64,000 nt of DNA, taken from assembly GCA_041665345.1 (NCBI GenBank), contig JBAYJA010000002.1, positions 97,252 through 161,251 of the forward strand, read 5' to 3'. The position numbers were made by a program, and so were the translations under genes. This document shows, one piece after another, positions 25,091 to 41,825 of the stretch. The notes beneath the pieces were generated by a model. The model searched no databases, had not been told where the DNA came from, and saw only the letters and a list, made by a program, of their open reading frames with translations. How positions within the stretch are numbered: position 1 is the first letter of the stretch; every line of letters begins with the position of its first letter. Source of the stretch: Patescibacteria group bacterium (GTDB lineage: Bacteria > Patescibacteriota > Patescibacteriia > PEXW01).

Positions 25091-27001
25091 ATGTCCAAGA
25101 TCCTCGGTATCGACCTCGGTACAACCAACTCCTGCATGGCCATCATTGAAGGTGGTGAGCCAAAAGTTTTGGAGAACAAAGAAGGGAACCGCACCACGCC
25201 TTCTGTCGTTGCAGTATCCAAAACCGGCGAACGTCTGGTTGGCCAAGTGGCCAAGCGCCAGGCCGTTGTCAACCCAGAAAACACTCTCTATTCCATTAAG
25301 CGGCTCATTGGTCGGCACTGGAATGATGAAGAAGTCCAGCGCGACCAGAAAGTTCTGCCCTTCAAACTCAAGCAATCTGGCGATGGCGTGAAAGTGATTT
25401 TGCAAGGCAAAGAGTATGCTCCGCAGGAAATTTCAGCCATGGTTTTGCAGAAAATGAAGGAAGACGCGGAAACCAAGCTGGGTGAGAAAATCACCGAAGC
25501 AGTGATTACCGTCCCGGCCTACTTTGACGACAGTCAGCGCCAAGCCACCAAAGACGCGGGTGAAATTGCCGGCCTCAAAGTCAAGCGCATTATCAACGAG
25601 CCAACCGCAGCCGCGCTCGCCTATGGTTTCAACAAGAAGAAGGACGAGAAAATTGCAGTGTACGACCTAGGCGGCGGCACATTCGACATTTCCATTCTGG
25701 AAGTCAGCAATGACACCGTGGAAGTGAAAGCCACCAACGGGGACACCCACCTGGGCGGCGACGACTTTGACCAAATCATTATCCACTGGATAATTGACGA
25801 GTTTAAGAAAGACCAGGGGATTGACCTTGGCCAAGATCAGATGGCTTTGCAGCGCTTGAAGGAATCTGCGGAAAAAGCCAAGCACGAGCTTTCCACCACC
25901 GCGGAAACGGAAATCAACCAACCTTTCATTACCACGGACGCATCCGGCCCCAAGCACTTGGCCCTCAAACTCACCCGCGCCAAACTGGAGCAGCTGGTGG
26001 GCGATCTCGTTGAGAAAACCTTGGAACCAACCAAGAAAGCTTTGGCTGATGCCGGCCTGAAAGCCAGCGACATCAATGAAGTCATCATGGTCGGTGGTAT
26101 GACCCGCATGCCTCTGGTGCAATCCACCGTGGAAAAATTCTTTGGCAAAAAGCCGCACCTGGGTGTGAACCCAGACGAAGTGGTAGCCATCGGCGCCGCA
26201 GTTCAAGCCGGTGTGCTGCAAGGTGAAGTCCGCGACGTGCTGTTGCTGGATGTCACCCCGCTCACCCTGGGCTTAGAAACCCTGGGCGGTGTGTCCACAC
26301 CTTTGATTGACCGCAACACCACCATTCCAACCAGCAAATCCCAAGTGTTCTCCACAGCCGCGGACAACCAGACCAGCGTGGAAATTCACGTGCTGCAAGG
26401 GGAGCGACCCATGGCCAATGACAACAAGTCCCTGGGCCGGTTCATCCTCAGCGGCATTCCGCCGTCACCCCGCGGCGTGCCCCAGGTGGAAGTCACCTTT
26501 GACATTGACGCCAACGGCATCCTGAACGTGAAAGCCAAGGACAAGGCTAGCAACAAGGAGCAGAGCATTACCATCACCGCGTCGTCCGGCTTGTCCAAGG
26601 ACGAGGTGGAGAAGATGAAGCAGGAAGCGCAGGTTCACGCCGAAGAGGACAAGAAGAAGCGCGAGCTCATTGACATGCGTAACATGGCCGACAGCCTGGT
26701 CTTCACCGCGGAGAAGAGTCTCAAAGACGCGGGCGACAAAGTCCCAGCCGACGTGAAGAAGGAAATTGAGGAAAAAATGGAAGCCGTGAAAAAGGTGAAG
26801 GATGGGGATGATAAGGATGCCATCAAGAAAGCCACGGATGACCTGGGGCAGACGATACAGAAGATTGGTCAGGCGATGTATAAAGGTAGCGAGCAGGCGA
26901 GTAAGCAAGCTGGCGAGTCAGCAGGAGGGGAGAAGTCTGGCGAAGCACCCAAGGATGATAAAGGTCCGGTGGATGCGAAGTACGAGGAGGTGAAGAAGTA
27001 A
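25091..27001 (+). CDS. dnaK: Molecular chaperone DnaK (Hsp70)
   Basis: [16 protein letters not shown], the full Hsp70 signature set and a C-terminal EEVKK-like tail. 636 aa. Confidence 0.95.
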
Positions 27002-27008
27002 TTTGGTA

Positions 27009-27030
27009 GGGGCGCCGAAAGGCGCCCTTT
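27009..27030 (+). terminator. Rho-independent terminator after dnaK
   Basis: GGGGCGCC-GAAA-GGCGCCC followed by TTT. Confidence 0.5.
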
Positions 27031-27042
27031 AACACTTCATAT

Positions 27043-27615
27043 ATGATTGAATTAAAAATTACCGAAGAAGTTCGATCCTACTATTCAGAACTGCAGGGGT
27101 ATCTCTCGCAATTTCCTATTGCCAAGAGTCCAAGTGATGTAAGTGATGATTTTTCAATGGTTGAACGACTCAATGGGGTCATTGATAAATTGCAGACTTT
27201 ATGTAATGAGGATTTGAGCCGCTTCAAGGTTAGCAGCCCGCCAGGATACGATTCACAGTACTTTCTTATTTCTCAGTACCGTACATTGGTTGGTGGTTTA
27301 ATTTCTCGACTGCACGCCAAGTTTTTTTCAAATGAACCCCCACCATTTTCTGGAATGCCAAGCACAGTGAATCACTTTTCTCAAAGTCAAACACAAAACC
27401 AGTCACAAAATATGCAGCTAGTTATGGAGGTAACTGAGATAATAACAAAAAGTCTGGCCAATACTGATATTCCCCAAGATGAAAAAACGTTTTTGCAGAA
27501 GGTAAAGGAAATTTTACCAACAATCAATGGAGGATTAGACTTAGTACAGAAAGTGAGTGCAATTGCTGCACAATTAGGTATGAGCATTGAAGCGGTGAGT
27601 AGACTCCTTCGTTAG
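27043..27615 (+). CDS. Hypothetical protein (190 aa), AT-rich island, partner of the SIR2-like gene
   Basis: Markedly lower GC than the flanks. No TM and no recognisable motif. 31 nt upstream of the SIR2_2 gene on the same strand. Confidence 0.5.
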   Translation: MIELKITEEVRSYYSELQGYLSQFPIAKSPSDVSDDFSMVERLNGVIDKLQTLCNEDLSRFKVSSPPGYDSQYFLISQYRTLVGGLISRLHAKFFSNEPPPFSGMPSTVNHFSQSQTQNQSQNMQLVMEVTEIITKSLANTDIPQDEKTFLQKVKEILPTINGGLDLVQKVSAIAAQLGMSIEAVSRLLR

Positions 27616-27645
27616 TTTTTGATAAACCTCTAGAGATATAAAACC

Positions 27646-28767
27646 ATGAAGTTATTCATTTTTGGTGCGGGGGCTTCAAGAGGATCAACTAATAAGAATG
27701 TAGAGCATAATTCATTGCAGGCGCCCTTAGCTAATGAATTATTGGATGATATCTACAAATCTTATGCTGATGCTTTAGATTTAAATATTGATGTTCTAAG
27801 GGCGGATTATAAAAAGTATAAAGAGGAGGCATTACTAAATAAACAAGTGGTTAGCTTAGAAACCTGGATGACTGATTTATGGCATAAAGCACATGCGGGC
27901 GCTGGAAGTCTTACATCTGAAATCATTACATCATACAGAGGGTTTCTTGGACGGTTTGCGCATTACTTAAGGTGGATGCTCCAAGAAATTTCACAATTGA
28001 AGAGTAACTCAGAATTGTATCGTTTACTATTGATTAAACTACATGAGGAAGGTGTAAATGGTGTTGAACATGCATATGTAAATTTTAATTACGATACACT
28101 ATTTGATATTGCATATGATGATATTTGGGGGACAACGCTCTCTGACATTGATTCTTACACCTCACATCGAATTTTAAAGCCTCACGGCTCGATTAATTGG
28201 TTTGCTCAAAAGAGAGATCAAGATGGTGGAATACCTTCAAAACATGCTGATAACGATGAAAGGAATAGATATCGCGTCGCGTCGCGGAATCTCTTTAATG
28301 GGAGTCCAGTGGACCTTAAAGATCATAGGACTTATGATCCAAAGAGTACGCTATTACATAATTCCAGTTTTATTGGTAGCTCTGATTTTAAAGGGGACTA
28401 TTTTCAGCCACTAATTTTTTTGCCACTTTCGGAAAAGATGTTTGACCACATTCCTGAGTTAAGCAAAAAGATTGAAAAGGCTGCATCAGAAATACTACCA
28501 AATGTTGATCAGGTTTATTTGATTGGCTATCAGGCAAATGATAAACTGATTCATGAATGGATAAGTACATATATTAAGAAGGCGGTTCTACATGTTGTGA
28601 GTAATACAGAGGATTCATGTAATGCCTTAATGAGTAAAATGCAAGAAATGCATAAAGATGTGTTTGAAAAGGGAACGGTAACATATGATGCAAATGACAC
28701 TTCGTTTAAAAATGGCTTCTATAATTTTGTTGAGAGTTATGGTAACAAACAACAAAAAGAAACTTAG
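27646..28767 (+). CDS. SIR2_2-family (sirtuin-like) protein, candidate NAD+-depleting defence effector
   Basis: N-terminal KLFIFGAGASRGS (GAGxS Rossmann motif), VNFNYDTLFD (the (T)NYD motif) and ILKPHGSINW (HGS motif). This is the three-motif signature of the SIR2_2 family found in Thoeris ThsA, DSR and SIR2-HerA systems. The gene is AT-rich. Confidence 0.6.
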   Translation: MKLFIFGAGASRGSTNKNVEHNSLQAPLANELLDDIYKSYADALDLNIDVLRADYKKYKEEALLNKQVVSLETWMTDLWHKAHAGAGSLTSEIITSYRGFLGRFAHYLRWMLQEISQLKSNSELYRLLLIKLHEEGVNGVEHAYVNFNYDTLFDIAYDDIWGTTLSDIDSYTSHRILKPHGSINWFAQKRDQDGGIPSKHADNDERNRYRVASRNLFNGSPVDLKDHRTYDPKSTLLHNSSFIGSSDFKGDYFQPLIFLPLSEKMFDHIPELSKKIEKAASEILPNVDQVYLIGYQANDKLIHEWISTYIKKAVLHVVSNTEDSCNALMSKMQEMHKDVFEKGTVTYDANDTSFKNGFYNFVESYGNKQQKET

Positions 28768-28905
28768 AGAAAATTGGATGAAGCTTAGGAGCATGGAAAA
28801 CTACAAAAGCGTATTATTTAGGAATCGTTAGCAGATAAGGCGATTTTGTAATTTTCTTCCTCCGCCCCGCCCGCTGCGTGGGAGAAATAATGCTAGAATA
28901 GAAGC

Positions 28906-29379
28906 ATGCATAAAGACTTAAGTAAGCTTTCACGGGATATTATTGAGAGCAACCAGTATATGGTGGTTGGGACTGTTGATGCAGCCGGAAAGCCTTGGGT
29001 GTCCCCGGTGGTGTATGCATACGATAAGGAGTGGAATTTTTACTTTGTGAGTATTCCATCTTCGCGGCACGGAAAGAATATTGGCAAACAGGGGAAAGTA
29101 GCCGTTGCCATTTATGATTCACGTCAGCGTTCAGGAGAAGGGGTTGGTGTCCAACTTGATGCCGTTGCAGAGATGTTGCCACTCTCGGAGAGTGTGTCTG
29201 CAGCTAGAGTGTACTTCACCCGAAAATATCCGTACGGGAAAATTCGGCAGGTTTTCTTAATAGCGTTTAAACGGCTCATAGAACGGAAGTTGTATCGATT
29301 TTACAAAGTCACACCAAAGAAGGTGTACTTGAATGACCCAAACGCAGACACTGATGTCCGTGTGGAAGTGAAGTTATAA
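28906..29379 (+). CDS. Pyridoxamine 5'-phosphate oxidase-like FMN-binding family protein
   Basis: General-stress-26 / PNPOx-like pattern (YMVVGTVDAAGKPWVSPVVYAYD...KVAVAIYD). The GC-rich motif plus extended -10 (TGCTAGAAT) lie immediately upstream. Confidence 0.5.
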   Translation: MHKDLSKLSRDIIESNQYMVVGTVDAAGKPWVSPVVYAYDKEWNFYFVSIPSSRHGKNIGKQGKVAVAIYDSRQRSGEGVGVQLDAVAEMLPLSESVSAARVYFTRKYPYGKIRQVFLIAFKRLIERKLYRFYKVTPKKVYLNDPNADTDVRVEVKL

Positions 29380-29464
29380 AAATTCCTGAGGGTAGGTAAT
29401 GTGAAGCATTTTTTTCGCCCCGCCCCGCCCGCTGCGTGGGGAGAAAGTTTGGTATACTTGAAAT

Positions 29465-29974
29465 ATGAAAACTATCCTTACTCTTCGGCAGAAAGACGTT
29501 TACCCACGTTCTAAGGTAAAGAAGATAACGTACCATACTCGTACAGCTGCCCGCGCTATACTTTTTGATAGTCAAAACCGTATTGCCCTGGAATACGTGA
29601 GTTTACGGAACTACTACAAGTTGCCTGGCGGTGGGGTGGAAAAGGGTGAAAGTATTTTGCTTGGCCTACGTCGTGAATGTATGGAGGAAGCGGGGTGTGC
29701 CATCAAACCCGGGAAAGCCATTGGGAAAATTGTGGAGTATCGTGACCTATACAAGATTCACCAAGTTTCGTACTGCTACTTTGCAAAGGTGGTTGGGAAG
29801 AAAGGGAAGACCGCGTTCACCGGGAGTGAGAAGACAAACAAGTTTAAATTGTTATGGGTGCCGCTGGGAAAGGCAATTGCTCTCTCACGCAAAGCCAAAC
29901 CCTCGACGTACGAAAGTGGGTTTATCATCAAACGAGATTTGCAGTTCTTAGAAACGGCGAAGAGTTTGTTGTAA
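29465..29974 (+). CDS. NUDIX hydrolase
   Basis: Nudix box GGGVEKGESILLGLRRECMEEAGC. Upstream are the CGCCCCGCCCGCTGCGTGGGG motif and TGGTATACT, with the ATG only 6 nt after the -10. Confidence 0.6.
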   Translation: MKTILTLRQKDVYPRSKVKKITYHTRTAARAILFDSQNRIALEYVSLRNYYKLPGGGVEKGESILLGLRRECMEEAGCAIKPGKAIGKIVEYRDLYKIHQVSYCYFAKVVGKKGKTAFTGSEKTNKFKLLWVPLGKAIALSRKAKPSTYESGFIIKRDLQFLETAKSLL

Positions 29975-30115
29975 TACCCCGCCTCGCCCGCTGCGGCCCA
30001 CCTACGTCCACGACTTCGTCGGGACTCCGGCGCTACAGGTGGGTGTGGTACCATGGGGATATTAAAATCTATCTAAATTCTGGTAATACAATTCACTATT
30101 GCTTGAATTCACAAT

Positions 30116-30418
30116 ATGAAATCTAATACGATAAAAATAGAAAAGAAGAGGTATTTGCTCTGCCCTCAATGTCATACTTATACACGGATGAAGATGAGTA
30201 TGAATAATCCGTCGTGGTTTTTAAAACATTTTTTCATTGGTCGCTTTGCCTCAACCGTCATGGCTTCTGAAAGGAATAGTGATAAGTGGGGCGTTAATTG
30301 TAAAAAGTGTGGGAATAGAGAAGGTCTTGCAATGATGTTTCTCAAAACTGAAGTAGGTTCCAATAAAGTTGAACTAGCATATTACACGGAAGCTAATGAA
30401 AGAGTCAGCTTGATTTAA
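30116..30418 (+). CDS. Small zinc-ribbon-like protein
   Basis: CPQCHTY ... CKKCGN. AT-rich. Confidence 0.35.
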   Translation: MKSNTIKIEKKRYLLCPQCHTYTRMKMSMNNPSWFLKHFFIGRFASTVMASERNSDKWGVNCKKCGNREGLAMMFLKTEVGSNKVELAYYTEANERVSLI

Positions 30419-30501
30419 GTACTCCCCCCGCCCCGCCCGCTGCGAGCAGGGGAGTAAGAAAAGACCCGGCCAAAGTGGTCGGGTCATGCGTGCGTTTATG
30501 T

Positions 30502-30945
30502 TTACTTGCCAAACGACACATCGAGGAGCGCGTTGTGCAGGTCCGGATTGTTACACGTGATAAAATCAATTTTGTGTAAACTGTTTGGATACTTCTGCAG
30601 GAATGTCTGCCGGCCTTCCATCATTTTAACTGCAGTCTTTTTCGCAACTGCTTTTTTCCTGAAGGTGCGTTTTCCAACATGGACAATTCTGAGTGATGCT
30701 TCCTGGAATCGGCTGGAAGAAGCTGCTTGGAGACAGTGAATGACAATGGTGGGAAGCTTCTCAATTTCACTGTCCGTCACAAAGGTTGCGTGCATTATTT
30801 TGTCACCGTCATTCTTCTGACGACCAATGACAATAACTGAATGCTGCATATCCAAGGATTGTTGTGCATTGAGTGTGTCATCAGTTACACGCTGAAGAAG
30901 AAACTCTGTGAGTTTCTCATCACCGAAAATAATTCCTAATTCCAT
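30502..30945 (-). CDS. Hypothetical protein (147 aa)
   Basis: Minus-strand ORF with a terminator hairpin (rc of 30455-30485) followed by a T-run. No recognisable domain. Confidence 0.4.
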   Translation of the reverse strand: MELGIIFGDEKLTEFLLQRVTDDTLNAQQSLDMQHSVIVIGRQKNDGDKIMHATFVTDSEIEKLPTIVIHCLQAASSSRFQEASLRIVHVGKRTFRKKAVAKKTAVKMMEGRQTFLQKYPNSLHKIDFITCNNPDLHNALLDVSFGK

Positions 30946-31037
30946 ATTTGTAAAGACCTCCGTTTTGTTTTATATTCTTTAATTGAATACTGTAGATCAT
31001 AACCAACTTTCTGTCAACCCGCCCCGCCCCGCCGTAG

Positions 31038-31577
31038 GTGTATACTTCCCCTATGCCATACGATGATATAGCAAAGGTGCTGGATATACAGTTCAGTGGG
31101 AGCCCTGAGATAGTAGCCAAATTCAGGGAGCGCTTAGAAGAAGGGAAATGGACCCGTGACGAGAATCCGCAGTCGCATTTTTGCGCCTACTTTTTGCCAT
31201 ACAATCCAGAGACTAAAGAGGTGTTCATTGTGCACCACAAAAAGTCAGGACTGTGGATTGCCCCAGGTGGCCACATTGATGAGGGCGAAACACTCTTCCA
31301 GACGCTCAACCGTGAGATTGAAGAAGAGCTTGGCGTCAAGCAGTTTTTTTCTTCCAGCCAAATGCCTTTCCTGCTGACCATTACGCCAATTGAGATGCAG
31401 ACCCATCCGTGCAAAATGCATTATGATATTTGGTATCTTGTGCAGACAAATGGTAAAAATTTTCAGATTGACCCCAAGGAATTTTTGGCTACCAAGTGGT
31501 TGAGCATAGAAGCTGCCAGAAAGTACGTCACCGATCCGCCAAATCTCAAAGCTCTAGAAATGATTGAGCAATCCTAA
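31038..31577 (+). CDS. NUDIX hydrolase
   Basis: Nudix box GGHIDEGETLFQTLNREIEEELGV. Upstream GC-rich motif plus GGTGTATACT extended -10. Apparently leaderless. Confidence 0.6.
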   Translation: MYTSPMPYDDIAKVLDIQFSGSPEIVAKFRERLEEGKWTRDENPQSHFCAYFLPYNPETKEVFIVHHKKSGLWIAPGGHIDEGETLFQTLNREIEEELGVKQFFSSSQMPFLLTITPIEMQTHPCKMHYDIWYLVQTNGKNFQIDPKEFLATKWLSIEAARKYVTDPPNLKALEMIEQS

Positions 31578-31667
31578 CCTCGCCCCGCCCGCTGCGTGGG
31601 GGGATACGTAACTTTATATAGTTATGCCATTTGACAAACTTTATAAAGTTTGTTATTCTGGGTGTAT

Positions 31668-32585
31668 ATGACCATTCAGCAGAAATTACAGACCATTCAG
31701 GCCCTTACCGGCAAAACGCAGGAAACACTTGCCAAGGTGCTGGGCGTAAGCTTTCCGGCATTCAACGCCTGGTCTACCGGCAAGGCGCAGCCACGACCAA
31801 GTGCGCTCGCTCGCATTAACGCGCTGTACGTACACGTTGGCGGTAGAATGACGCCTCAGGCTTCTGGCCTGGAGGCGAAGAAGCTGACTATCCAACACCT
31901 TTCCCGCAAGCACCCAAACGTGCTGAAGAAGATTTTGGCACGCAAAGACTTGCACGATTCATTCATGTTGGCATTAACATTTCATACAAACCGTATTGAA
32001 GGTAGCACGGTGACCGAAGATGAAACTGCAGCAATTTTGTTTGACCACCAGGTCTTACGGAATCGCACTTTGGTGGAGCAGCAGGAGGTAAAAAATCACC
32101 AAGCCGCCTTAGACTATCTGCTGCACCATTTGCAGAGTGGGAAGCGTATTGATGAAGTTCTCATTTTGCGTTTGCATGGTATTTTGCTCAATGCCATTCA
32201 GACTGATGCGGGGTCATATCGTCAACATGCAGTCCGGATTGTTGGCGCAAACGTGCCTACGGCGAATTATTTGAAAGTGCCGGTGCTTATGAAGTCTTTG
32301 GCTTCTGGGTTAGAAAAGAAAGTGGCAGATAGTATTTCTGCCACTGCTGACGTCCACGCGCGCTTTGAACAGGTCCATCCTTTTGCCGATGGTAATGGAC
32401 GCATTGGGCGTTTGCTGATTACTGCAATGCTGTTGCGGGCGAACATTGCTCCCGCAATCATTGAGCAGCGTCAACGTCGCACCTACATGCGTAGTCTAAA
32501 TGTTGCCCAAACGACATCGGATAGCATCCCATTGCAGGAGTTTCTCAGTGATGCGGTATTGAAAGGGTACGCGCTACTTGTGTAG
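31668..32585 (+). CDS. Fic / Doc family protein with N-terminal HTH
   Basis: Fic motif HPFADGNGRIGR. N-terminal XRE-like HTH (TQETLAKVLGVSFPAFNAWSTGKAQP). Confidence 0.75.
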   Translation: MTIQQKLQTIQALTGKTQETLAKVLGVSFPAFNAWSTGKAQPRPSALARINALYVHVGGRMTPQASGLEAKKLTIQHLSRKHPNVLKKILARKDLHDSFMLALTFHTNRIEGSTVTEDETAAILFDHQVLRNRTLVEQQEVKNHQAALDYLLHHLQSGKRIDEVLILRLHGILLNAIQTDAGSYRQHAVRIVGANVPTANYLKVPVLMKSLASGLEKKVADSISATADVHARFEQVHPFADGNGRIGRLLITAMLLRANIAPAIIEQRQRRTYMRSLNVAQTTSDSIPLQEFLSDAVLKGYALLV

Positions 32586-32730
32586 TTTCGTATAGTTTTT
32601 TTTGTAGTCAACCCCCCCCACCTACGCAATAGCTACGGTGGGCAGGCGCCCCGCCCGCTGCGTGGGGTTGCAATTATTTTTATCTTTGCCTATAGTGCGT
32701 TGATAACGCTCTTTCCATGTGGAGGTTTCC

Positions 32731-33153
32731 ATGCCTGAAGATGAGAAGCCGAGCAGCTTGCCAGGGAACGAGAGGTACATCGTTGATTTTCTCTACGTCC
32801 AGAAGGGTTGGTTCTCCTGTTTAGGACCAATTCGGAAGTATCGTCTCCTTGGTGATGTTCTGGGTTTTCGAAAGGGACAGATAGTAGATGATCAAGAATT
32901 GCAACACGCATGTGTCGCTGCTTTACAGGCACGGCCAAGAAAGGCTCCAGGACATTCTGACAGCAATGATACTGATTACGAGCTTCCCACAGTGACGTGC
33001 CCACGTTGTGGAGCAGAAGTGTATCGGCTGATTGCATGTCATTGGTGTGAAAACAGCATTTGCACGCACTGTTGCTATGAAGATGAACTGTACGGAAAGT
33101 TCTGTGATGAGAGCTGCTATAGCGGCCGTTGGAATTCTGATAATTACGATTAA
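32731..33153 (+). CDS. Cys-rich zinc-finger-like protein
   Basis: CPRCGAEVYRLIACHWCENSICTHCCYEDELYGKFCDESCYSGRW. GGAGG RBS before the ATG at 32731. Confidence 0.45.
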   Translation: MPEDEKPSSLPGNERYIVDFLYVQKGWFSCLGPIRKYRLLGDVLGFRKGQIVDDQELQHACVAALQARPRKAPGHSDSNDTDYELPTVTCPRCGAEVYRLIACHWCENSICTHCCYEDELYGKFCDESCYSGRWNSDNYD

Positions 33154-33271
33154 AGACTAGGCAATGCTTAGTCTTTTTTTCTTTAAATTTTTCAAGAAAC
33201 TGACATACCTTGGCACGGGGAAATAAGAAAAGACCCATCTGGTGAAGATGGGCTTTTCAAAGGGCATCCAA

Positions 33272-33658
33272 TTACACCCTCGATCTTTTCAATTGGTATA
33301 ATTTTAGGGCAAAATGCAGGAGGGCGGTTCCAAGATACGCAGTCAATACCCATTTTGTTGCATCTGATATTCCCCAGATAAGGATGTGAGTGAACGTCAC
33401 GGCAAGGGCAAGGTTCATGAGTGTGCAGGTTGCAAACGGTAGTGCGGCAAATGTTCTGGTTGTAAAGTAACGCGTTTGACGCAGCTCTCTCACGGCGAAT
33501 CCGAGCATGAACCCAGACACGATGAGGAAGAAACAAGCCACTGCGAGCATTGCCCAATGGTCTTGCATGGGCGGAGTAAAGTATCGCTTGCACCCCAGAA
33601 CCCCGGCGAGCCCAGCAGCAATGGAAAAAAGAAAGAAAATACGAGTCGAGTCTTTCAA
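33272..33658 (-). CDS. Membrane protein (128 aa, 4 TM)
   Basis: Hydrophobic ORF. A terminator hairpin with GAAAAGACCCATCTGGTG..ATGGGCTTTTC lies downstream at 33225-33260. Confidence 0.45.
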   Translation of the reverse strand: MKDSTRIFFLFSIAAGLAGVLGCKRYFTPPMQDHWAMLAVACFFLIVSGFMLGFAVRELRQTRYFTTRTFAALPFATCTLMNLALAVTFTHILIWGISDATKWVLTAYLGTALLHFALKLYQLKRSRV

Positions 33659-33804
33659 TTGGTAACCTCCAATGTAAAAATTTTTATGTTCCCAATAACC
33701 TATATCGTTAGAGTTGTTTTGTCAACCCCCGCCAGCTGTGATTCGGGATAAGAAAAGACCCATCTGGTGAGGATGGGCTTTTCAAAGAGAGTGTTGTGTT
33801 TGGG

Positions 33805-34224
33805 TTAAACCTTGGGTTGCGGATTGGCCTTGAGCGCTTTTTCCTTTGCTTGAAACGCAGCGAGTGCTCCTTCACCACCTTTTTTCGTGATAGCGTCGTG
33901 CAAGTGCTGAGTTGTCCAATCACCGTAGGTGACCATTCCGCAGATGTGATTCATCCGGAGGTGGTAGAGCGCACCTGGGAAAACCCCGCAGGGAATATCA
34001 TTCAGACGGATGAATTCATCTACACCCTCGCTCATCGGACAAGCCGAGCAGATGAGCTTGTCGTAGAGATCCTGGTAGAACACGCGTTTGCATTTGTCAT
34101 ACCAGTCAAAGTAGTAGGTCTTCCCTTCAGGTGCCGGCGGACGTTCTTGGCCATTTTCTACTTTTGGCATCTGGGTGGGCAGGATGACATTGAATTTTTC
34201 CGCGACTTCCAGCGCGAGTTTCAT
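33805..34224 (-). CDS. Hypothetical Cys/His-rich protein (139 aa)
   Basis: ATG overlaps the stop of an upstream 54-aa ORF (ATGA). A terminator-like repeat lies downstream (33750-33785). Confidence 0.4.
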   Translation of the reverse strand: MKLALEVAEKFNVILPTQMPKVENGQERPPAPEGKTYYFDWYDKCKRVFYQDLYDKLICSACPMSEGVDEFIRLNDIPCGVFPGALYHLRMNHICGMVTYGDWTTQHLHDAITKKGGEGALAAFQAKEKALKANPQPKV

Positions 34225-34385
34225 GGAGAGCTCGTCGGCTTCACATACCTGGCCATGATGCTTCCGTCTTTGTCCTCGATACGCCCATGACTCATGTCAT
34301 GCCGTGTATGCCAGGAAAAACCACCCAGCGACTCTATTGCTTGCCAGTACTCCAGCTCTGTTTCGGGCTGTTTTTCAAGCTTCAT
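34221..34385 (-). CDS. Small ORF (54 aa), translationally coupled to 33805-34224, or an N-terminal fragment of a frameshifted gene
   Basis: GGAGGA RBS 4 nt before the ATG at 34385. The stop TGA overlaps the downstream ATG. Confidence 0.3.
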   Translation of the reverse strand: MKLEKQPETELEYWQAIESLGGFSWHTRHDMSHGRIEDKDGSIMARYVKPTSSP

Positions 34386-34512
34386 TGTATCCTCCTTAGT
34401 TATTTCAAGTTTCTATTTCGTAGTAGTTTTTCAGATAATGTAATAACTGTCAACCCCCCACCTACGCAGCAGCTATGGTGGGCAGGCGCCCCGCCCGCTG
34501 TAGCGTCCCTTC

Positions 34513-34675
34513 TGTCATTGCGAGCTCCAGCAGGAGCGTGGCAATCCCGATGAACTTCGGAACCAGGCTTGTACAATAGCCTGGCTCTTGATACAACGGG
34601 ATTGCCCGCCTGCATCGCCTCTGCGATTTCGGCGGGCAGGCCGCGTCACTCGATGACTCGTTCCTCGCAATGACA
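34513..34675. mobile_element. MITE-like element, family B (TGTCATTGCGAG ... CTCGCAATGACA)
   Basis: Terminal inverted repeats with internal sub-palindromes (GTGGCAATCCCG / CGGGCAGGCCGCG). The right inverted repeat overlaps the ATG of the GIY-YIG gene. An inverted copy lies at 61426-61539 and a half copy at 43819-43873. Confidence 0.5.
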
Positions 34676-34987
34676 AATGAAAACGTGCAAGAACGGTATT
34701 ACTATGTCTACATCATGACCAACGAGCGCAACACGACGCTCTACACTGGCGTGACCAATGATTTGCCCCGGCGGGTCATGGAGCATAAGGAGAAGACATT
34801 TCCCAAAAGCTTCAGTGCCAAGTACAACCTGACCAAGCTGGTGTACTACGAAGCTGGTGAAGATATCAGCGGCGCCATTGAACGGGAGAAGCAAATAAAA
34901 TCCTGGTCGCGAAAGAAGAAGGAGGAAGTCATCACCAGCGTCAATCCCACGTGGAAGGATTTGACTGCAGAGCTACTTGAGGGATAA
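34670..34987 (+). CDS. GIY-YIG nuclease superfamily protein (UPF0213-like)
   Basis: YYYVYIMTNERNTTLYTGVTNDLPRRVMEHKEK is the canonical GIY-YIG N-terminal motif. 105 aa. Confidence 0.7.
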   Translation: MTNENVQERYYYVYIMTNERNTTLYTGVTNDLPRRVMEHKEKTFPKSFSAKYNLTKLVYYEAGEDISGAIEREKQIKSWSRKKKEEVITSVNPTWKDLTAELLEG

Positions 34988-35486
34988 GGAAAGACCAAGA
35001 AACTGGGGGACTTTTACGGTCCCCATGCGTTTACATTTCTTGTAATAAAAAACACCCGGCTAGGAAAACCTTTAAGGAGGTTCTCAGAGCCGGGGTGGCA
35101 CGACAGGAGTCGCGGAAGTCAAAAGAACGATAGTTCTCATTTACTATTGTATCAGCTTCGTGGAAATATGCAAATCGGATGATTTTTGGGTAGCTGCTAA
35201 ATTGCTTTGATTAACGGAGGTAATAGTTTTGTAAATAAAAGACCGGGTTTCACGAATGAAACCCGGGGTGATACTGCTCTTGCAATCCAGCCAGAACCAA
35301 CTAGTGAATGGGAATGATGCTCAAGTGAACCTGAGTCTCGCTACCTCACCAAGGTGAGGGTCTCGGCAAAAACTTCTCAACGGTTCAGGGATACAAAACC
35401 CCATTCAAATGCGGAAACTATTACTGGTGAAAGGAGCAGCATTAAATATTTTGATAAACCGAGACTAACTTACTCCTGGGCAACTG

Positions 35487-35837
35487 TCAAGGTGCAAGCT
35501 TGTCGGTCAGGACAGGCGGATATAGAGGTTGGGATATTGCCCCGCTTTCAACTTCCGCAAGTATCACGGTATACCCCAGTGCTTGCAGGGCGAGCAAGAA
35601 CGCAGTTACCTTCCGTGGCGGTTTATTGCTAATCATTTGCGCAAGTAAACGGAAGGCGGTTCGTTTTGACATTTTGCCACGTACTTGCAGTTCGTTGGCA
35701 ATATCCGCAACCGCGCCAAACTTTTGAGCTCTTTTATTGTCGATGACTGTCCTGAACTGCTGCAGGAGCTCTGGCAGGGGCTGCGTTAAATCAAGCGGTT
35801 GCAATACCGTGGGTTGGACAATTTGTGTTTCTTCCAT
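35487..35837 (-). CDS. Hypothetical protein (116 aa)
   Basis: Minus-strand ORF. No recognisable domain. Confidence 0.35.
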   Translation of the reverse strand: MEETQIVQPTVLQPLDLTQPLPELLQQFRTVIDNKRAQKFGAVADIANELQVRGKMSKRTAFRLLAQMISNKPPRKVTAFLLALQALGYTVILAEVESGAISQPLYPPVLTDKLAP

Positions 35838-35986
35838 TTTTCTCTCCAGGTGAACAATTTTCCTCTAGTGTAGGCTTGGTGTGAAGATTGTCAAGCTTCC
35901 GTGTGGCAAATATTCACTTGACGAAGTTGCACGAACGTTCTACAGTGGTGGGAAAATAAGCACTTTAAAAATTGGAGGAAATGTAT

Positions 35987-36514
35987 ATGTTCTCAGAAAG
36001 TATTCCTGATGAGGAGCGTCAGCGATTACAAGAAATTCCAAAATTCTTCATTATAACTGCGCTCATTGGGGCAGCGCTGACGGCTTACGCATTGCATCAT
36101 TTCCCCGCAATACTTCAAGCTTCACTCCTAGATCGTTTGCTCATGCTGTGCCTCCTAAGTTCATCGACGCTATTTGTCAGTGCCAATGGATGTTTGGTTG
36201 AGTATAGACGAACTCTTATACATTTAGCCATTTTCGTTGGTGTGAATCTCTCAGTGTATTTTGGATGCCGTGCATACTTTATTTCCCCGGAGGAATTGAG
36301 CACCTTCTTTGTCCTCCTGTACTCAGGAATTGCAATTGTACTGGCAAGTTTACTCACGCAATCAAGCGTCATGCGGATCACGACGAGAGACGGTTCATAC
36401 GCCAAAATGTTCAAGCAGCATATCATGCCACGGGTGCGAAGATTACTGTTTCGTTCCTTTATGATGGCGGTTGGACTTCAGATTGCGGTTTACCTATACT
36501 TTGCAATTTTGTAA
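35987..36514 (+). CDS. Membrane protein
   Basis: GGAGGA RBS 7 nt before the ATG at 35987. Multiple TM helices. Confidence 0.45.
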   Translation: MFSESIPDEERQRLQEIPKFFIITALIGAALTAYALHHFPAILQASLLDRLLMLCLLSSSTLFVSANGCLVEYRRTLIHLAIFVGVNLSVYFGCRAYFISPEELSTFFVLLYSGIAIVLASLLTQSSVMRITTRDGSYAKMFKQHIMPRVRRLLFRSFMMAVGLQIAVYLYFAIL

Positions 36515-36620
36515 ACAAACGAGAGTAGTCGTCCTCAAGTTTTTTGTTTGACATTGGCAGCAGATATGCTAAAAAACGAATATAACCAAAAACCACAAAA
36601 GATGAGAAAGGAGATGAAAG

Positions 36621-37025
36621 ATGAGAAGATCATTACTCACGGATCCAGGCAATTGGTGGCACGATGATTACCAACGGTACCCAATTCTGGCGTATGCTGC
36701 TCTCTGCCTGCTGATTCTCTGGCTAAAACTCAGTAACGCATTCCCCATGAGTTGGGAACAGGGGCTACTACCCCTCATTGCTGTGGGTATAGTGACCATC
36801 CTCTACTACATTGGCAAGGGGTTGAATCACACTATCCCAGACGCGGTGCTGTGCCTAGGTATGCGCTGGCGTCAACTGGCGCCCGGAAATACCATGATCA
36901 CACAATCGGCCAATGGGCTACGGGTTGCACTCACAAACCTTAGTTGGTCGGTAACGCCCTTCAAGGCATACGGTCAGAAAATGACCGAAAGTCGCAGTCG
37001 GCAAGGTTTCTGGTTAAAACCATAG
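36621..37025 (+). CDS. Membrane protein (134 aa)
   Basis: AGGAGATGAAAGATG context. Hydrophobic N-terminal half. Confidence 0.4.
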   Translation: MRRSLLTDPGNWWHDDYQRYPILAYAALCLLILWLKLSNAFPMSWEQGLLPLIAVGIVTILYYIGKGLNHTIPDAVLCLGMRWRQLAPGNTMITQSANGLRVALTNLSWSVTPFKAYGQKMTESRSRQGFWLKP

Positions 37026-37108
37026 TACGTATTTTTTTTGAGGCTGTCGCACGACGGCCTCTTTTCTATTATACTCATTCCATCTATCCACCAACTATTT
37101 TCTCATAT

Positions 37109-37381
37109 ATGCAACTCAAAGATTTTATTACCTACACGCTCACCAGCATTGCCCAAGGCGTGGATGAGGCAAATAAGTACACGGGTCAGCAGTTCCAAAT
37201 TGTGCGGACGGGCAAAGAATCCTACGTGGATTTTGACGTGGCCGTCACCTCCACCAAAGAGAAGAAGGGGAAAGCGGGGATTGTGGTGTGGGTGGTGGGT
37301 GCCGGCGGTGAACGAAACCGCAAGACCCAACAGGTGAGTAGGATTAAGTTCAAGGTGAATTATCGGGGGAAGAAGCTGTAA
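37109..37381 (+). CDS. Small hypothetical protein (about 90 aa)
   Basis: ATG at 37109 downstream of a terminator hairpin (37040-37063) and a TATACT -10. No RBS, possibly leaderless. Confidence 0.3.
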   Translation: MQLKDFITYTLTSIAQGVDEANKYTGQQFQIVRTGKESYVDFDVAVTSTKEKKGKAGIVVWVVGAGGERNRKTQQVSRIKFKVNYRGKKL

Positions 37382-37535
37382 AGGCGTAGAGAATTTTTAC
37401 AAACCAGAGCGCCCTCTCCAGGGCGCGATGCATGTTTTTGGTGCACGGTATCGGTTGTGTGTTATATGTTGTTTGTTGGTTGTTGATAAAAAAGACCCAC
37501 CTGGTTTGGGTGGGTCTGGCCTGCTTTACGTTATA

Positions 37536-37781
37536 CTACCTTACACAAAGCCAATAGTTCACCGCATCGTATGATGGCCGCCGTAGGAGGAGAGTGGTCT
37601 GCTGTCCCTTTTTGATAAAGGTGTCTGGACCGCTGTCACGGACATCGATGGTCATTTTCAGGACCTCAGCATGGGTGAATTGTCGCGTTGGATCATCCAC
37701 GCAGTGCAAGTGCATCGTGTTTACGCGAATTTCAATTGCTTGAATAGTACTTGATAAGAAAAGGACTTCATTTGTGGACAC
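37536..37781 (-). CDS. Small protein (81 aa), paralog of 37914-38162
   Basis: Shares the ...DAVN(Y/D)WL C-terminal motif with its neighbour. Followed by a strong intrinsic terminator (GACCCACCC..GGTGGGTC then T6). Confidence 0.45.
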   Translation of the reverse strand: MSTNEVLFLSSTIQAIEIRVNTMHLHCVDDPTRQFTHAEVLKMTIDVRDSGPDTFIKKGQQTTLLLRRPSYDAVNYWLCVR

Positions 37782-37913
37782 AGTACCTCCTGGTTTTTTT
37801 TGTGTTCAGCAGAGTGTAGCATTAGGTTGCAAACCGTCAAGCGCACATAAAAAAGACCCACCCTCCTCCGCCACTGCTTTGGAGGGCAGGCCAGGTAAGG
37901 GTGGGTTTGATAC

Positions 37914-38162
37914 TTACACTTTTCCTTTTAACCAGTCATTGACTGCATCGGCGGTTTCCTTGCAAAGGCTAAGAGAGTCAATACCATTGCGTTGCAAAAG
38001 CATGTCACGGCCAGTCGAGTTCACGGTAATCTTCATTTTCCGCACTTCCTCGATGAGTCCTTTCCATTCTGTATGGTGGGCGGTAATCAGTATTATGTGT
38101 TTTGGAAACACACTGACCGAAAGAATTGTCGCAATGGAAAAAAGTGAATCTGGTTTTTTCAC
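37914..38162 (-). CDS. Small protein (82 aa), tandem paralog
   Basis: Part of a tandemly duplicated unit of about 380 bp (gene plus conserved upstream block TGTTCAGCAGAGTGTAGCATT... plus terminator). Confidence 0.45.
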   Translation of the reverse strand: MKKPDSLFSIATILSVSVFPKHIILITAHHTEWKGLIEEVRKMKITVNSTGRDMLLQRNGIDSLSLCKETADAVNDWLKGKV

Positions 38163-38323
38163 ACGGTTCCTCCTTGGTTTTGGTGTTCAGCAGAGTGTAG
38201 CATTCGGCTACTAGCCGTCAAGGCGTGTAAAAAAAGACCCACCCTCCTTCGCTGCTGCTTTGGAGGGCAGGTCGAGGAGTGGTGAGTCTTTATAATGTGC
38301 TTCACGAGCACGTGACGCTACTT

Positions 38324-38575
38324 TCAGCCGGGCCATTCGTTGGCCCAGGCGGAGAGGAGCTTGGTGGTGTCGTAGGTCAGATGAAAGGTGCACCTTGATC
38401 CTTCTTCAACCACACGCTCATTCTCATTGGTTGTGTGAATGCTGACCATATTCGAACATTGACCAACAGAAAGTTCGAATTCGCGGCCATCTGTGCACTG
38501 AATGGTTACAGTGTCTTTCCCGGGAGCGATGTTGAGTACAGGGTGTTCTTTTTTTCTAACGTCCGTGTCAGCCAT
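38324..38575 (-). CDS. Small hypothetical protein (83 aa)
   Basis: ORF with a terminator downstream (38225-38290) and the same conserved upstream block. Confidence 0.4.
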   Translation of the reverse strand: MADTDVRKKEHPVLNIAPGKDTVTIQCTDGREFELSVGQCSNMVSIHTTNENERVVEEGSRCTFHLTYDTTKLLSAWANEWPG

Positions 38576-38698
38576 GGTTCCTCCACTTGATTTTTATGTG
38601 GTCTTTTTGTATAATCTGCTTTCGTCTCCCTATCCTACGTCGCCGGTTTCGCAGCGTCAATATGCTACACTGGCAGTAGGTGTAACCCCCTTTTTCCT

Positions 38699-38989
38699 AT
38701 GAACCAAGCCCAACAATTGCAAATAAAAATTGATGACATCACCATGAAAGGTGTGTACGCCAACATGATGAGCATTGCCCACACCAAGGAAGAATTTGTT
38801 TTGGATTTCCTGCACATTGCGGCAGCGCAGCAGCAGGGCATTGCCGTGGCGCGGGTGGTTGTTTCCCCTGGGCACGCCAAGCGCATTTTGAGCGCCATCA
38901 AGGAAAACCTGGAAAAGTACGAAGCGGCTTTTGGGAAAATTGAAGCCGCCAAGGAGCCAACCTCTGGTGGGGTTGGGTTCCAGGCGTAA
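38699..38989 (+). CDS. DUF3467-like small protein
   Basis: KGVYANMMSIAHTKEEFVLDF pattern, reminiscent of the DUF3467 family. 96 aa. Confidence 0.4.
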   Translation: MNQAQQLQIKIDDITMKGVYANMMSIAHTKEEFVLDFLHIAAAQQQGIAVARVVVSPGHAKRILSAIKENLEKYEAAFGKIEAAKEPTSGGVGFQA

Positions 38990-39006
38990 CCTACATTTGG
39001 AGTAGT

Positions 39007-40194
39007 ATGGCCACCCCCTCCTCACTCGCGCAAAAAATGACCAAATCCACAGCACCAACACCAAGTCCACTGACGTGGAAATTTGTGGTTATGGGTGTGG
39101 TGCCGGTGGTGAGTAGCGTGCTGTTGTGGTGGACGCTGCACATAGCGTTGCTTGGACCCAATGACGCGCTGACCACGGTTGAGCGCCTGATGCAGTACAG
39201 CGTGAGTTTGATTTTTTTCTGTATTACCCTGGCCTTGTTTGGCGTCTTTGCTATGGCCGCTGGCCGTCGGCGCTGGTGGGCTTCGCTCGTTTCCGGTGCG
39301 CTGAGTTCCATCACCTTGCTCCCATTCTTCCCGTGGCGCTGGGCAACCTTGGCTGCTGCGCTCATTACCTTGTGTGGGTATGCACTGTGGTCATGGAACG
39401 TGGCTGGGGATGTGGCCATCCGGCGGAAGTTCCAACCACATTACACCATCCATGCCGGATTTGGCACAGGGTTGATTCTCCTCCTGGTGGGAGTGTCGAT
39501 GTGCTACTATACTTCGTTGGGTCAAAAAGATGCTTCTGCTGCGACATTCCGGGAAAATTTGATTAGCTCTGGTCGTGAGGGAATTGATTCTGTGCTGGCG
39601 AATCAAGTGGAGGGGTACCGGGGAGAAATGACCTTGGATGAATTTTTGGGTTTGGTGGCAACGGATAAGCTTGGGGAATTTGTCCTCCCTCAGGTGACGG
39701 AGACATTGGACAATGACCGAGCCAAGCAGGAAGCGTACAGGAAATTGCAGACTGAATTGCGGAAGCTGAACCCTAGTTTGCCAGCCACGCAGACAAATGC
39801 AATGGGCGCTGAGCTGGACAAGCAACTGGAAGCTGAACGGCAAGCGCTGTTGCAGGCAACGTTGGCTAAACTCAGTGATGTGCAGCGGCAACTCTTAGAT
39901 GAAGCACGCCATGAATTTGTGCAAACTTTTCGCATTCAGGCTGCCGGTACGGAAACGATGGACGCGGTCATTGATAAAATTCTCTTACGAAATATTTCCA
40001 CCTACGTGGATCCGTACGAAGATTTCTTGCCACCGTTGCTTGCGCTCTCTTTCTTCTTTGTCATTGAGCTGATTAGTATTATCTACCGGTATATCATTTT
40101 TGCTTTGGCGCCGCTCATTGCCTGGGTGTACCAGAAAATGGGTGCCCTGCGCTTGCGGGTGGTTCAGGCAGATGTTGAGGAAGTGGTGGTGTAG
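39007..40194 (+). CDS. Polytopic membrane protein (395 aa)
   Basis: N-terminal helices, a central coiled-coil-like region and a C-terminal TM. Ends 6 nt before dnaJ. Confidence 0.5.
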
Positions 40195-40199
40195 CGCGT

Positions 40200-41324
40200 A
40201 TGGAAAAAGACTACTACTCCATTCTTGGGATTTCTCGCTCCGCGAGTGCGGATGAGGTGAAGAAAGCCTTTCGGAAGAAAGCGCACGAATTTCACCCTGA
40301 CAAATCCCACGGTGACGAGGCAAAGTTTAAGGAAGTGAATGAGGCGTACCAGGTTTTGTCGAACCAGGAAAAGCGCCAGCAGTATGACCAGTACGGCCAA
40401 ACCTTTGACGATGCTCGCCGGCAGGGTGGTGGCCCTGGTGCGGGTGCTGGGTTTGGCGGTTTTGGTGGATTTGGCCAGGGCGGGTTCCAAGGCAACGTGG
40501 ATATGGGCGACCTGGGAGATATGTTTGGTGACCTATTTGGCTTTGGGGGTGGGCGGAGTCGTCGCAGCACCCGGCAACGTGGTGGTGCAGATATCCAGGC
40601 AGACATCCAGCTCACTTTCCGGGAGGCATCGTTTGGCGTGGAAAAGCAATTTGAACTATTGAAAGAAGTTGTGTGCGATCACTGCAAAGGTAACGGGGCA
40701 GAACCTGGTGCCAAGGTAGAAACGTGCAGTACGTGCAAGGGTCAAGGTCAGGTGCAGCGCGTGGTGAATTCCATGTTCGGCCAAATGGCGCAGACTGTCG
40801 TTTGTCCAACTTGCGAAGGGCAAGGGAGTGTCCCAACCCAGAAGTGTCGGACGTGTGGGGGTGATGGCCGAGTCCGTCGTGAAACCATGATCAAAGTTTC
40901 GGTCCCGGCTGGGATTGATGACGGTGAGCGCATACGCCTCACTGGTCAAGGGGAGGCAGGTGAACGTGGGGCAGCGGCAGGGGATTTGTACCTCCGTATT
41001 CGGGTAACACCGGATGCACGGTACGAACGGGATGGGGCAAACGTGGTTTCCACCGCCCACATTACTTTTTCCCAGGCAGCACTTGGAGCGAAAGTCGACG
41101 TCGAAACTTTGGATGGCGCAGTGGTCATGAAAATTCCCTCAGGAACCCAGAGCGGCAAAGTGTTCCGCTTGAAAGACAAAGGCATTCCGCATCTGCGCAA
41201 ACGCGGCCGGGGGGATCACCTGGTCACCGTTGTCGTTGACGTGCCCACGAAGTTATCCGGTAAACGCAAAGCACTACTGAAACAACTTGCAGAAATTGAG
41301 GGGAGTGAGGTAGAGGAGGGGTAG
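40200..41324 (+). CDS. dnaJ: Molecular chaperone DnaJ
   Basis: J-domain with HPD (DYYSILGI...FHPDK), a G/F-rich region and four CxxCxGxG zinc-finger repeats. Confidence 0.9.
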
Positions 41325-41514: not shown

Positions 41515-41652
41515 TGTCATCCTGAATCATATGACCTGTCCACCGAAGCAGCAGCGTAGGTGGGAGGATCCCCAGGCTATGGATAAACTTCAGAGATTCT
41601 CCCGCCTACGTTAAGAAACTTCGGCTGACTGGTCGTCAGACTCAGAATGACA
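41515..41652. mobile_element. MITE-like element, family A (138 bp)
   Basis: TGTCATCCTGAATC ... GACTCAGAATGACA termini, with the internal block CTCCCGCCTACGTTAAGAAACTTCGG. Confidence 0.45.
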
Positions 41653-41825
41653 AAGGGGAAGGAGAAAGTTTTGGTTTTGGATGGTGGATGGAAGATGAGA
41701 AATGCAACTAAATAGCCTAAACCTATACCTCTCCCAAACCTCCACCCTCTAACTCCACACGCCGCGACACCTAAAACCTACCAACACACTTGCGAAACTA
41801 GTGAGAATCCATTAGGGTATGAAAA

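Follow-up and report, generated by a model that had tools for sequence, protein, structure and literature searches.

A Short C-Rich Repeat Marks Gene-Cassette Borders in a Hypervariable Island of a Patescibacteria Chromosome

A Hypervariable Island within the Heat-Shock Cluster

Bacteria of the Patescibacteria (candidate phyla radiation, CPR) have tiny genomes, and how accessory and defence genes enter and leave these genomes is poorly understood. Here we describe a short C-rich repeat that separates small accessory genes in a 64,000-nucleotide (nt) stretch of DNA from a Patescibacteria group bacterium (assembly GCA_041665345.1, contig JBAYJA010000002.1, positions 97,252 to 161,251 of the forward strand); this whole stretch is called the window below, and positions are counted from its first letter. 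The repeat lies inside a heat-shock gene cluster with the order hrcA, grpE, hsp20, dnaK (25091-27001), ~11.7 kb of small accessory genes, DUF3467, a gene of 395 amino acids (aa), and dnaJ (40200-41324).

Three relatives (L017, L019 and L020; DnaK 89-91% identical) retain both the hrcA-grpE-hsp20-dnaK and the DUF3467-X-dnaJ blocks, while the genes between them are entirely different. Because the relatives keep this frame with unrelated genes inside it, the interval between dnaK and DUF3467 is a hypervariable slot (Table 1). Three further sequences (L002, L003 and L025) represent the same strain as the window (99.9-100% identical) and are uninformative on variation. The cassettes of the island encode SIR2-like, PNPOx-like and Trypco2 proteins, a Fic protein of the SoFic/PDC-S04 type, NUDIX proteins of the PDC-S07 type and a GIY-YIG nuclease; the array is rich in defence-type genes.

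Nine Copies of a C-Rich Core

The window contains nine copies of a C-rich core, (C)CGCCCCGCCCGCTGCG, all on the plus strand between 28.86 and 34.50 kb, and no other copy. Eight had been listed in the original prediction, made from the sequence of the window; all of these exist, on the plus strand and within 0-7 nt of where they had been placed, and a degenerate copy at 33727-33740 is additional. A 22-mer search allowing up to three mismatches gave window matches at 28862, 29420, 30428, 31580 and 32646, with none expected. The 12-mer CCCCGCCCGCTG with at most one mismatch was found at 28865, 29423, 29982, 30431, 31583, 32649, 33727 and 34489 (0.32 expected), and the 10-nt core GCCCGCTGCG occurs exactly at six window sites (0.14 expected). 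The strand is fixed regardless of the orientation of the neighbouring genes. The core is ~17 nt long; in an anchored listing of 13 copies, conservation is high through CGCCCCGCCCGCTGCG and drops sharply directly 3' of it.

Scans for the core covered ~80 kb of this genome, made up of the 64-kb window and a further 16 kb. Six exact copies, together with degenerate ones, fall within 5.6 kb; the other 58 kb of the window hold none, and the further 16 kb hold one, which adjoins a truncated GIY-YIG gene (L027). A dispersed repeat, a possibility that the original prediction had raised against itself, does not fit a core confined to the island and one outlying copy. Searches with exact 20-mers in GTDB species genomes, JGI metagenomes and IMG/VR returned nothing, or single chance matches in unrelated GC-rich contigs (57-78% GC), so the motif is not traceable by DNA search. 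No Rfam family reached the gathering threshold in the window, and the island gave only a spurious miRNA match (E = 0.46).

Two of the copies are of a long version, in which the core is preceded by a hairpin, CCNCC-loop-GGN'GG-RCAGG. The existence of such a version, proposed earlier, was confirmed by alignment of 32614-32660 with 34454-34500, which are 94% identical over 47 nt.

Table 1. Junction repeats, promoters and associated elements (window coordinates unless a relative is named)
Feature	Position	Strand	Remarks
Hypervariable island	27043..38698		Between dnaK (25091-27001) and DUF3467-X-dnaJ block (38699-41324); motif-bearing sub-array 28862-34500
Truncated cassette-gene remnant	28800..28868	+	Promoter remnant and first ~18 codons; fused to copy 1
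Junction repeat copy 1	28862..28883	+	Core GCCCGCTGCG at 28869-28878; left border of PNPOx cassette
Junction repeat copy 2	29416..29441	+	Border of PNPOx and NUDIX1 cassettes
Junction repeat copy 3	29976..30049	+	Variant CCCCGCCTCGCCCGCTGCG, core 29986-29995; then CCCACCT...AGGTGGG hairpin
Junction repeat copy 4	30424..30455	+	Between 3' ends of convergent genes; without promoter
Junction repeat copy 5	31018..31035	+	Degenerate CCGCCCCGCCCCGCCGTA; between divergent promoters
Junction repeat copy 6	31580..31601	+	Left border of Fic cassette; 29 nt upstream of Fic -35
Junction repeat copy 7, long version	32606..32667	+	Hairpin CCACC-N14-GGTGG (32618-32641), GCAGGCG, core 32653-32662
Junction repeat copy 8	33727..33740	+	Degenerate CCCCGCCAGCTGTG; right border of two-gene block 32668-33726
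Junction repeat copy 9, long version	34455..34500	+	Interrupted after GCTG by GIY-YIG element
PNPOx-like gene promoter	28891..28908	+	Extended -10 TGCTAGAAT, 6-nt spacer, ATG; predicted leaderless
NUDIX1 promoter	29450..29467	+	Extended -10 TGGTATACT, 6-nt spacer, ATG; predicted leaderless
NUDIX2 promoter	31041..31055	+	-10 TATACT, 6-nt spacer, ATG; predicted leaderless
HTH-Fic promoter	31631..31670	+	TTGACA-17-TATTCT, 8 nt to ATG; same geometry in L023
147-aa minus-strand gene promoter	30989..31017	-	TTGACA-17-TACAGT; -35 abuts copy 5
Cys-rich gene promoter	32668..32696	+	TTGCAA-17-TATAGT; -35 abuts copy 7
GIY-YIG element	34501..34987	+	Inserted in copy 9; 160-nt leader, ORF 34670-34987
GIY-YIG module, solo or fragment copies	15881-15973, 41565-41657, 43813-43863, 61423-61544		Window
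GIY-YIG module, solo or fragment copies elsewhere	L021 121-160; L023 2690-2745; L027 18615-18815
REP-like hairpin copies	14465, 15918, 22298 (-), 32618, 34458, 34606, 37865, 38243, 41563 (-)		Window
REP-like hairpin copies in relatives	L019 15162; L021 65, 1732; L023 2637
Repeat families at 3400-13500	4925-5001/6000-6076; 7047-7140/7893-7985; 8288-8374/9058-9144; 11246/11696/13405		First pair 97% identical

Cassette Breakpoints Coincide with the Core

In L021, a PNPOx gene with 96% aa identity to that of the window is flanked by unrelated genes. Nucleotide homology between the two sequences starts at copy 1, runs through the promoter, the gene and the 3' untranslated region, and ends inside copy 2, after TTTTTTTCGCCCCGCC.

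L023 is a related array that was reached through a cluster member of NUDIX1; its dnaK has 89% nucleotide identity to that of the window. Homology blocks between the two, found with blastn, end in the window at 28872, 29450, 29995, 30429, 31018, 31598, 32662, 33748 and 34459, and all nine motif copies sit at a synteny breakpoint. One block ends at 28872, in copy 1; the NUDIX1 block (29450-29995) runs between copies 2 and 3, that of the cassette with a 147-aa minus-strand gene (30429-31018) between copies 4 and 5, and the Fic block starts at 31598, in copy 6. The only motif-free intergenic space in the sub-array (33153-33272), an internal control, has no breakpoint.

Four clean differences in gene content set L023 apart from the window. 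The PNPOx cassette (copies 1 and 2) is absent, as is a 100-aa gene (29996-30444, copies 3 and 4), in place of which a single CGCCCTGCCCGCTGCG joins NUDIX1 to the 147-aa cassette. NUDIX2 (copies 5 and 6) is replaced by an unrelated 131-aa gene that has a -35/-10 promoter and a Shine-Dalgarno site. Lastly, the convergent 140(+)/128(-) gene pair between copies 7 and 8 is absent, and the one hybrid junction left there, GTGGGCAGGCGCCCCGCCCGCTGCG joined to AAGGAAAGGATATAAGAAAAGACCC, consists of the left half of copy 7 and the right flank of copy 8. The point at which homology switches lies just 3' of GCTGCG.

The junctions are better conserved than the genes that they separate. GCCCGCTGCG is identical at four of five orthologous junctions between the window and L023, while the cassettes are 79-92% identical; copy 7 matches L023 5486-5510 over 25 of 25 nt between cassettes that are ~80% identical. 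Divergence also differs by cassette (91.7% identity for the 147-aa cassette, 79-82% for its neighbours), a pattern that suggests cassette-wise exchange. The gene whose remnant is fused to copy 1 is intact in L023 (6275-6661), where the identical truncation is also found at 2561-2628. The islands of L019 and L020 share a single stretch, a 35-nt GC-rich junction element (94% identity), and more distant relatives have other GC-rich junction elements (CTTCCCCCTGCGGCCCTTCTGCGGCAGGCGGGGG and related), which stand 3-15 nt away from a -10 of the type found here. Single cassettes with a copy on either side have gone, been exchanged or lie elsewhere, with one copy left behind; the core is shown to be a border at which cassettes are gained, lost and replaced.

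Promoters and Predicted Leaderless Starts

The -10 hexamer of a bacterial promoter occupies positions -12 to -7. On the plus strand, exactly 6 nt separate the hexamers TAGAAT, TATACT and TATACT from the ATGs at 28906, 29465 and 31053, respectively; the 6-nt spacer therefore places the A of each ATG at +1, which predicts a leaderless transcript. The original prediction had put the ATG 6-12 nt after the -10: the close spacing stands, and the actual geometry is sharper, exactly 6 nt at all three genes.

We counted TGnTAnnnT-N(x)-ATG patterns that open a reading frame (ORF) of at least 60 aa, with x from 2 to 12, over the 139 kb of the window, L017, L019, L020, L021 and L023. Ten ORF-linked matches were found at x = 6 and between 0 and 3 at each other spacing. 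The N6 matches precede unrelated genes, namely PNPOx, NUDIX, APH, RibD_C-domain and HD_4-domain genes and a core abhydrolase gene at 17163, and the module TGCTAGAATACAGATATG is identical before APH in L019 and the unrelated HD_4 gene in L020. The PNPOx gene of L021 begins TGCTAAAAT-ACAGGT-ATG, and the NUDIX1 ortholog in L023 keeps the N6 spacing while the letters of the spacer have changed (TGAAAT vs ACAGCC). A 6-nt gap leaves no room for a Shine-Dalgarno site, whereas the minus-strand cassettes have TTGACA-17-TAnnnT promoters, GGAGG Shine-Dalgarno sites and canonical terminators. Two promoters of the leaderless class, those of the core gene 17163 and L023 2755, lack the repeat core.

The excess at N6 (10 vs 0-3) and the spacing kept in L023 NUDIX1 support the extended -10 promoters and leaderless starts suggested earlier, which we now regard as predictions for this genome and its relatives that are well supported computationally. 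The pattern TGnTAnnnT-N6-ATG offers a testable prediction of leaderless expression in the phylum, as well as a practical rule for calling gene starts.

The Long Version and GIY-YIG Elements

The hairpin of the long version belongs to a family, CCNCC-loop(11-23 nt)-GGN'GG followed by RCAGGYSS, that is dispersed on both strands with at least nine copies in the window (14-42 kb); its central stem pair has undergone compensatory changes (A-T, G-C, T-A). For the orthologous junction upstream of copy 1, the window has the short form and L023 the long one, with CCCGCCC direct repeats on both sides of the additional segment; the two forms therefore interconvert.

The element that interrupts copy 9 encodes a GIY-YIG protein. 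Its leader, which contains the hairpin copy at 34606, is bounded by the inverted repeats GTCATTGCGAG (34514-34524) and CTCGCAATGAC (34664-34674), with the start codon inside the right repeat. The module is multi-copy, resembles a miniature inverted-repeat transposable element (MITE) and breaks short-read assemblies (L002 ends in it). In four independent places (window, L021, L023 and L027) the core is followed immediately on its 3' side by a GIY-YIG element or fragment, and truncated genes end exactly at the core edge at L027 18663 and window 34500. At L027 18555-18630, ~6 kb past where the window ends on the right, the minus strand carries a tRNA-like sequence beside the truncated GIY-YIG gene and the isolated core CCTCCTGCCCGCTGCG.

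Other Arrays with Their Own Junction Repeats

A second array (43800-46450, at 43.8-46.4 kb) comprises five minus-strand genes without detected mutual sequence similarity. Its junction repeat is a common terminator hairpin, CCGCCCGGTGGTGCCAGGCGG, that abuts the -35 of the neighbouring promoter, and L017 holds a single gene in the slot of this array. A second array with a junction repeat of its own argues for a general regulatory-module mode, not for one dedicated site. Several other families of local repeats occupy the spaces between small minus-strand genes at 3.4-13.5 kb (Table 1), and suggest that arrays of this genome generally have junction repeats of their own.

Interpretation of the Core

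We think it probable that cassettes are separated by a junction repeat of which the motif is the conserved core, and that this repeat, accompanied by portable promoter and terminator modules, resembles the promoter-early stem-loop (PeSL) mobile regulatory cassettes of T4-type phages (Arbiol et al. 2010, PMC2839356; Comeau et al. 2014, PMC4122927). The unit is a single gene, or in one case a convergent pair, with its own expression signals: either an extended -10 leaderless promoter, or a promoter of the -35/-10 kind together with a Shine-Dalgarno site and an intrinsic terminator. On the plus strand every unit closes with the C-rich core, and the comparisons show that units come, go and are exchanged through recombination at this core, switching just 3' of GCTGCG. 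Such recombination may take place between short direct repeats, or between these and matching repeats on incoming DNA, as has been proposed for PeSL cassettes. We favour this homology-driven, PeSL-like mode because the second array uses another repeat, because more repeat families occur at 3.4-13.5 kb, and because no integrase, recombinase or transposase was found in precomputed Pfam lists (18.9-39.4 kb plus flanks, ~80 kb; and the relatives) or in the 10 larger window ORFs scanned. Several points weigh against it. The shared core is only ~10-22 nt, short for RecA-dependent recombination, and just two independent comparison arrays (L021 and L023) carry it exactly. The strict conservation of GCCCGCTGCG could equally fit recognition by a protein, whether recombinase, nuclease or DNA-binding regulator, and the truncations exactly at the core edge (L027 18663 and window 34500) are suggestive of site-directed cutting more than of exchange by homology.

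Unlikely, though to be taken seriously, is a dedicated site-specific system that inserts and excises cassettes in an integron-like manner, without attC or IntI, and for which the core would be the recognition or crossover site; a tyrosine or serine recombinase, an HUH nuclease and the co-resident GIY-YIG nuclease are candidates for the enzyme. Such a system would agree with the uniform orientation of the copies, one per cassette at its plus-strand 3' end, with the precision of the switch point just 3' of GCTGCG, and with a 10-nt core that is invariant in surroundings diverged by ~20%. The flanks to the left and right act as modules independent of each other, the shared homology is very short, truncated genes abut the core edge, and GIY-YIG elements or fragments follow the core directly in the window, L021, L023 and L027, all of which likewise speak for an enzyme. 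Set against this are the lack of any integrase, recombinase or transposase domain in the island or the scanned window ORFs, the absence of canonical attC R''/R' pairs, and the small GIY-YIG proteins (~100 aa) without a detected DNA-binding domain. Other arrays of the window use different junction repeats and more distant relatives use different GC-rich elements, and we judge a dedicated system less likely than the PeSL-like mode. Yet more tentatively, the core may be viewed as a candidate recognition and cleavage site of a new non-integron cassette-capture system in Patescibacteria, with cutting or strand exchange 3' of GCTGCG; its enzyme, encoded elsewhere or identical with the small GIY-YIG nuclease, may build self-expressed defence-gene arrays at a fixed slot.

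The remaining readings assign the core to expression or to selfish repetition. The original prediction took it for a transcription-factor site at the -35 position that defines a regulon of island genes, and this operator we now consider hardly credible. Copies 1, 2 and 5 do overlap the -35 region of extended -10 promoters, copies 1 and 2 at nearly equal distance from the -10 (10-11 nt); the core is strongly conserved, and helix-turn-helix (HTH) proteins are encoded nearby (41826-42200; Fic N-terminus). The -35 placement nevertheless holds for these three of the nine copies only: of the others, some directly adjoin the -35 of minus-strand promoters and some precede a canonical -35 by 0-34 nt, the copy at 30428 is without any promoter, and the strand is constant whatever the orientation of the genes. 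Distances are not conserved at orthologous promoters. From core to -10, NUDIX1 has 16 nt in the window and 61 nt in L023 because a GIY-YIG inverted-repeat fragment intervenes in the latter; Fic has 34 vs 68 nt from core to -35, with a 33-nt insertion after GCTGCGT in L023, and the 147-aa gene has 0 vs 23 nt from core to promoter. Every copy stands at a cassette breakpoint, the leaderless promoter class occurs without the core (17163; L023 2755), and in more distant relatives other GC-rich elements stand at junctions of this type. The core adjoins promoters because every cassette begins with one, and is not required at -35. The dyad CCCGC-TGC-GTGGG, also proposed earlier, is present in four window copies; its GTGGG half is missing from most copies in the window, L021 and L023 and was seen in a minority of the 18 compared. 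The arms are not co-adapted (mean complementarity -7.5 kcal/mol for cognate and -7.7 kcal/mol for non-cognate pairs; permutation p = 0.60), and the copies fold no better than shuffled sequence (z -0.35 to -1.64), with significance only where a real terminator is included. Minimum free energies and the arm test speak against a hairpin or dyad as a maintained feature.

The same folding results bear on a transcriptional insulator or terminator hairpin that protects against read-through and whose position at recombination borders is incidental. The copies lie 0-36 nt after the stop codons of five plus-strand genes, some can fold into C-arm/G-arm hairpins (-12 to -16 kcal/mol), and the polyG/polyC stem-loops of PeSLs act as terminators (PMC2839356). 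Such a role is nevertheless improbable: folding does not exceed that of shuffles, cognate arms are no more complementary than non-cognate ones, the 3' flank is purine-rich without a U-tract, and separate canonical terminators (30462-30490, 33152-33176, 33233-33253 and 33758-33778) serve the cassettes that need termination. An intrinsic terminator is rejected because the U-tract is missing and a scan called no plus-strand copy terminator-like; a lone minus-strand call touching copy 6 (31585-31566) is weak, with six pairs (three G-C) and a mixed A/T tail, and misses GCCCGCTGCG. Very improbable, too, is a selfish dispersed repeat that resembles repetitive extragenic palindromic (REP) sequences or MITEs, occupies non-essential spacers and contributes nothing to the turnover of cassettes. 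The long version does contain a hairpin that is genuinely dispersed (at least nine copies, both strands) and MITE-like modules associated with GIY-YIG are scattered in the window, but the core itself is on a single strand within 5.6 kb, with one further copy in ~80 kb, and coincides with every synteny breakpoint.

Comparison with Known Systems

Several features are shared with PeSLs. Short modules recur in the intergenic spaces that separate the stop codon of a small accessory gene from the start of its neighbour; they cluster in hyperplastic regions flanked by conserved core blocks, combine a strong promoter with a G/C-tract element, and contain the breakpoints of insertions, deletions and replacements between close relatives. 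The host here, however, is a Patescibacteria chromosome rather than a phage; what is conserved is a 17-nt C-rich core, not the promoter; stem-loop formation is without statistical support in the shuffling and arm tests; and many promoters are of the extended -10 leaderless type without a Shine-Dalgarno site.

Like an integron or a cluster of attC sites lacking integrase (CALIN), the array consists mostly of single-gene cassettes, each with one site in the same orientation at its downstream end; the site varies in length (22-62 nt in its short and long versions), and presence or absence of a cassette between relatives leaves a single site. Unlike integron cassettes, those described here carry their own promoters and terminators and lie in both orientations, and the site is much shorter than attC. 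An attC site is 57-141 nt long with inverted core sites, RYYYAAC...GTTRRRY. A search with this pattern gave no match in 26-40 kb and four chance matches elsewhere in the window, and no integron integrase was seen in the DNA examined (Pfam lists for 18.9-39.4 kb plus flanks; 10 larger window ORFs). An integron is ruled out by the absence of attC cores, by the lack of any IntI seen and by cassettes that are self-promoted in both orientations.

Like the repeats described here, REP and bacterial interspersed mosaic elements (BIMEs), as well as dRS3 and the Neisseria intergenic mosaic elements (NIMEs), are GC-rich intergenic repeats at gene ends and recombination hotspots. In contrast to these, the core is local to one array, in one orientation and not dispersed, and whole expressed genes stand between its copies; REP-like behaviour, with dispersal in both orientations, is limited to the hairpin of the long version. 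In minimal mobile elements, as here, a fixed slot between conserved genes holds different genes in different strains. A literature search on cassette arrays, integrons and leaderless genes of CPR bacteria found nothing describing the present feature.

The fixed slot within the hrcA-grpE-dnaK-dnaJ heat-shock cluster acts as a cassette platform built from single genes, portable promoters and short conserved repeat borders, and the array is a tractable example of such a platform in a poorly understood phylum. If its turnover is driven by homology, the principle of phage PeSLs would extend to a cellular chromosome; if driven by an enzyme, it would constitute a new cassette-recombination system.

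Additional Observations

The interval 27001-29000, which covers a 190-aa gene and the SIR2-like 373-aa gene, has a GC content of 37-39%, compared with ~50% elsewhere, consistent with a recent foreign origin. L023 has three other genes at this position. The window contains no tRNA, which rules out a tRNA-linked island. Two further candidates for the motif were rejected. The resemblance of GCTGCGTGG to the E. coli Chi sequence GCTGGTGG does not hold, as the TGG part is unconserved in L021 and L023 and the motif is not dispersed; for a G-quadruplex or i-motif, most copies have too few runs of G or C.

A near-identical terminator module, TAAGAAAAGACCCATCTGGTGAGGATGGGCTTTTCAAAGAGAGTG, occurs at window 33223-33262 and 33748-33787, at L019 17188-17234 and at L023 5518-5567. 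In different genomes, several minus-strand genes carry it at their 3' ends; for the pair checked, at window 33805-34224 and L019 17254-17679, no similarity was found (BLASTP E = 3.1), and the module appears to be a portable terminator. The minus-strand gene at 33805-34385 is split into ORFs of 139 and 54 aa in the window, compared with a single 193-aa ORF in L023, and is probably a frameshifted pseudogene or the result of a sequencing error. Lastly, a duplicate of ~113 nt (37778-37890 and 38161-38271; 82% identical) spans the junctions of adjacent small minus-strand genes and includes the hairpin CCTCC...GGAGGGCAGGC.

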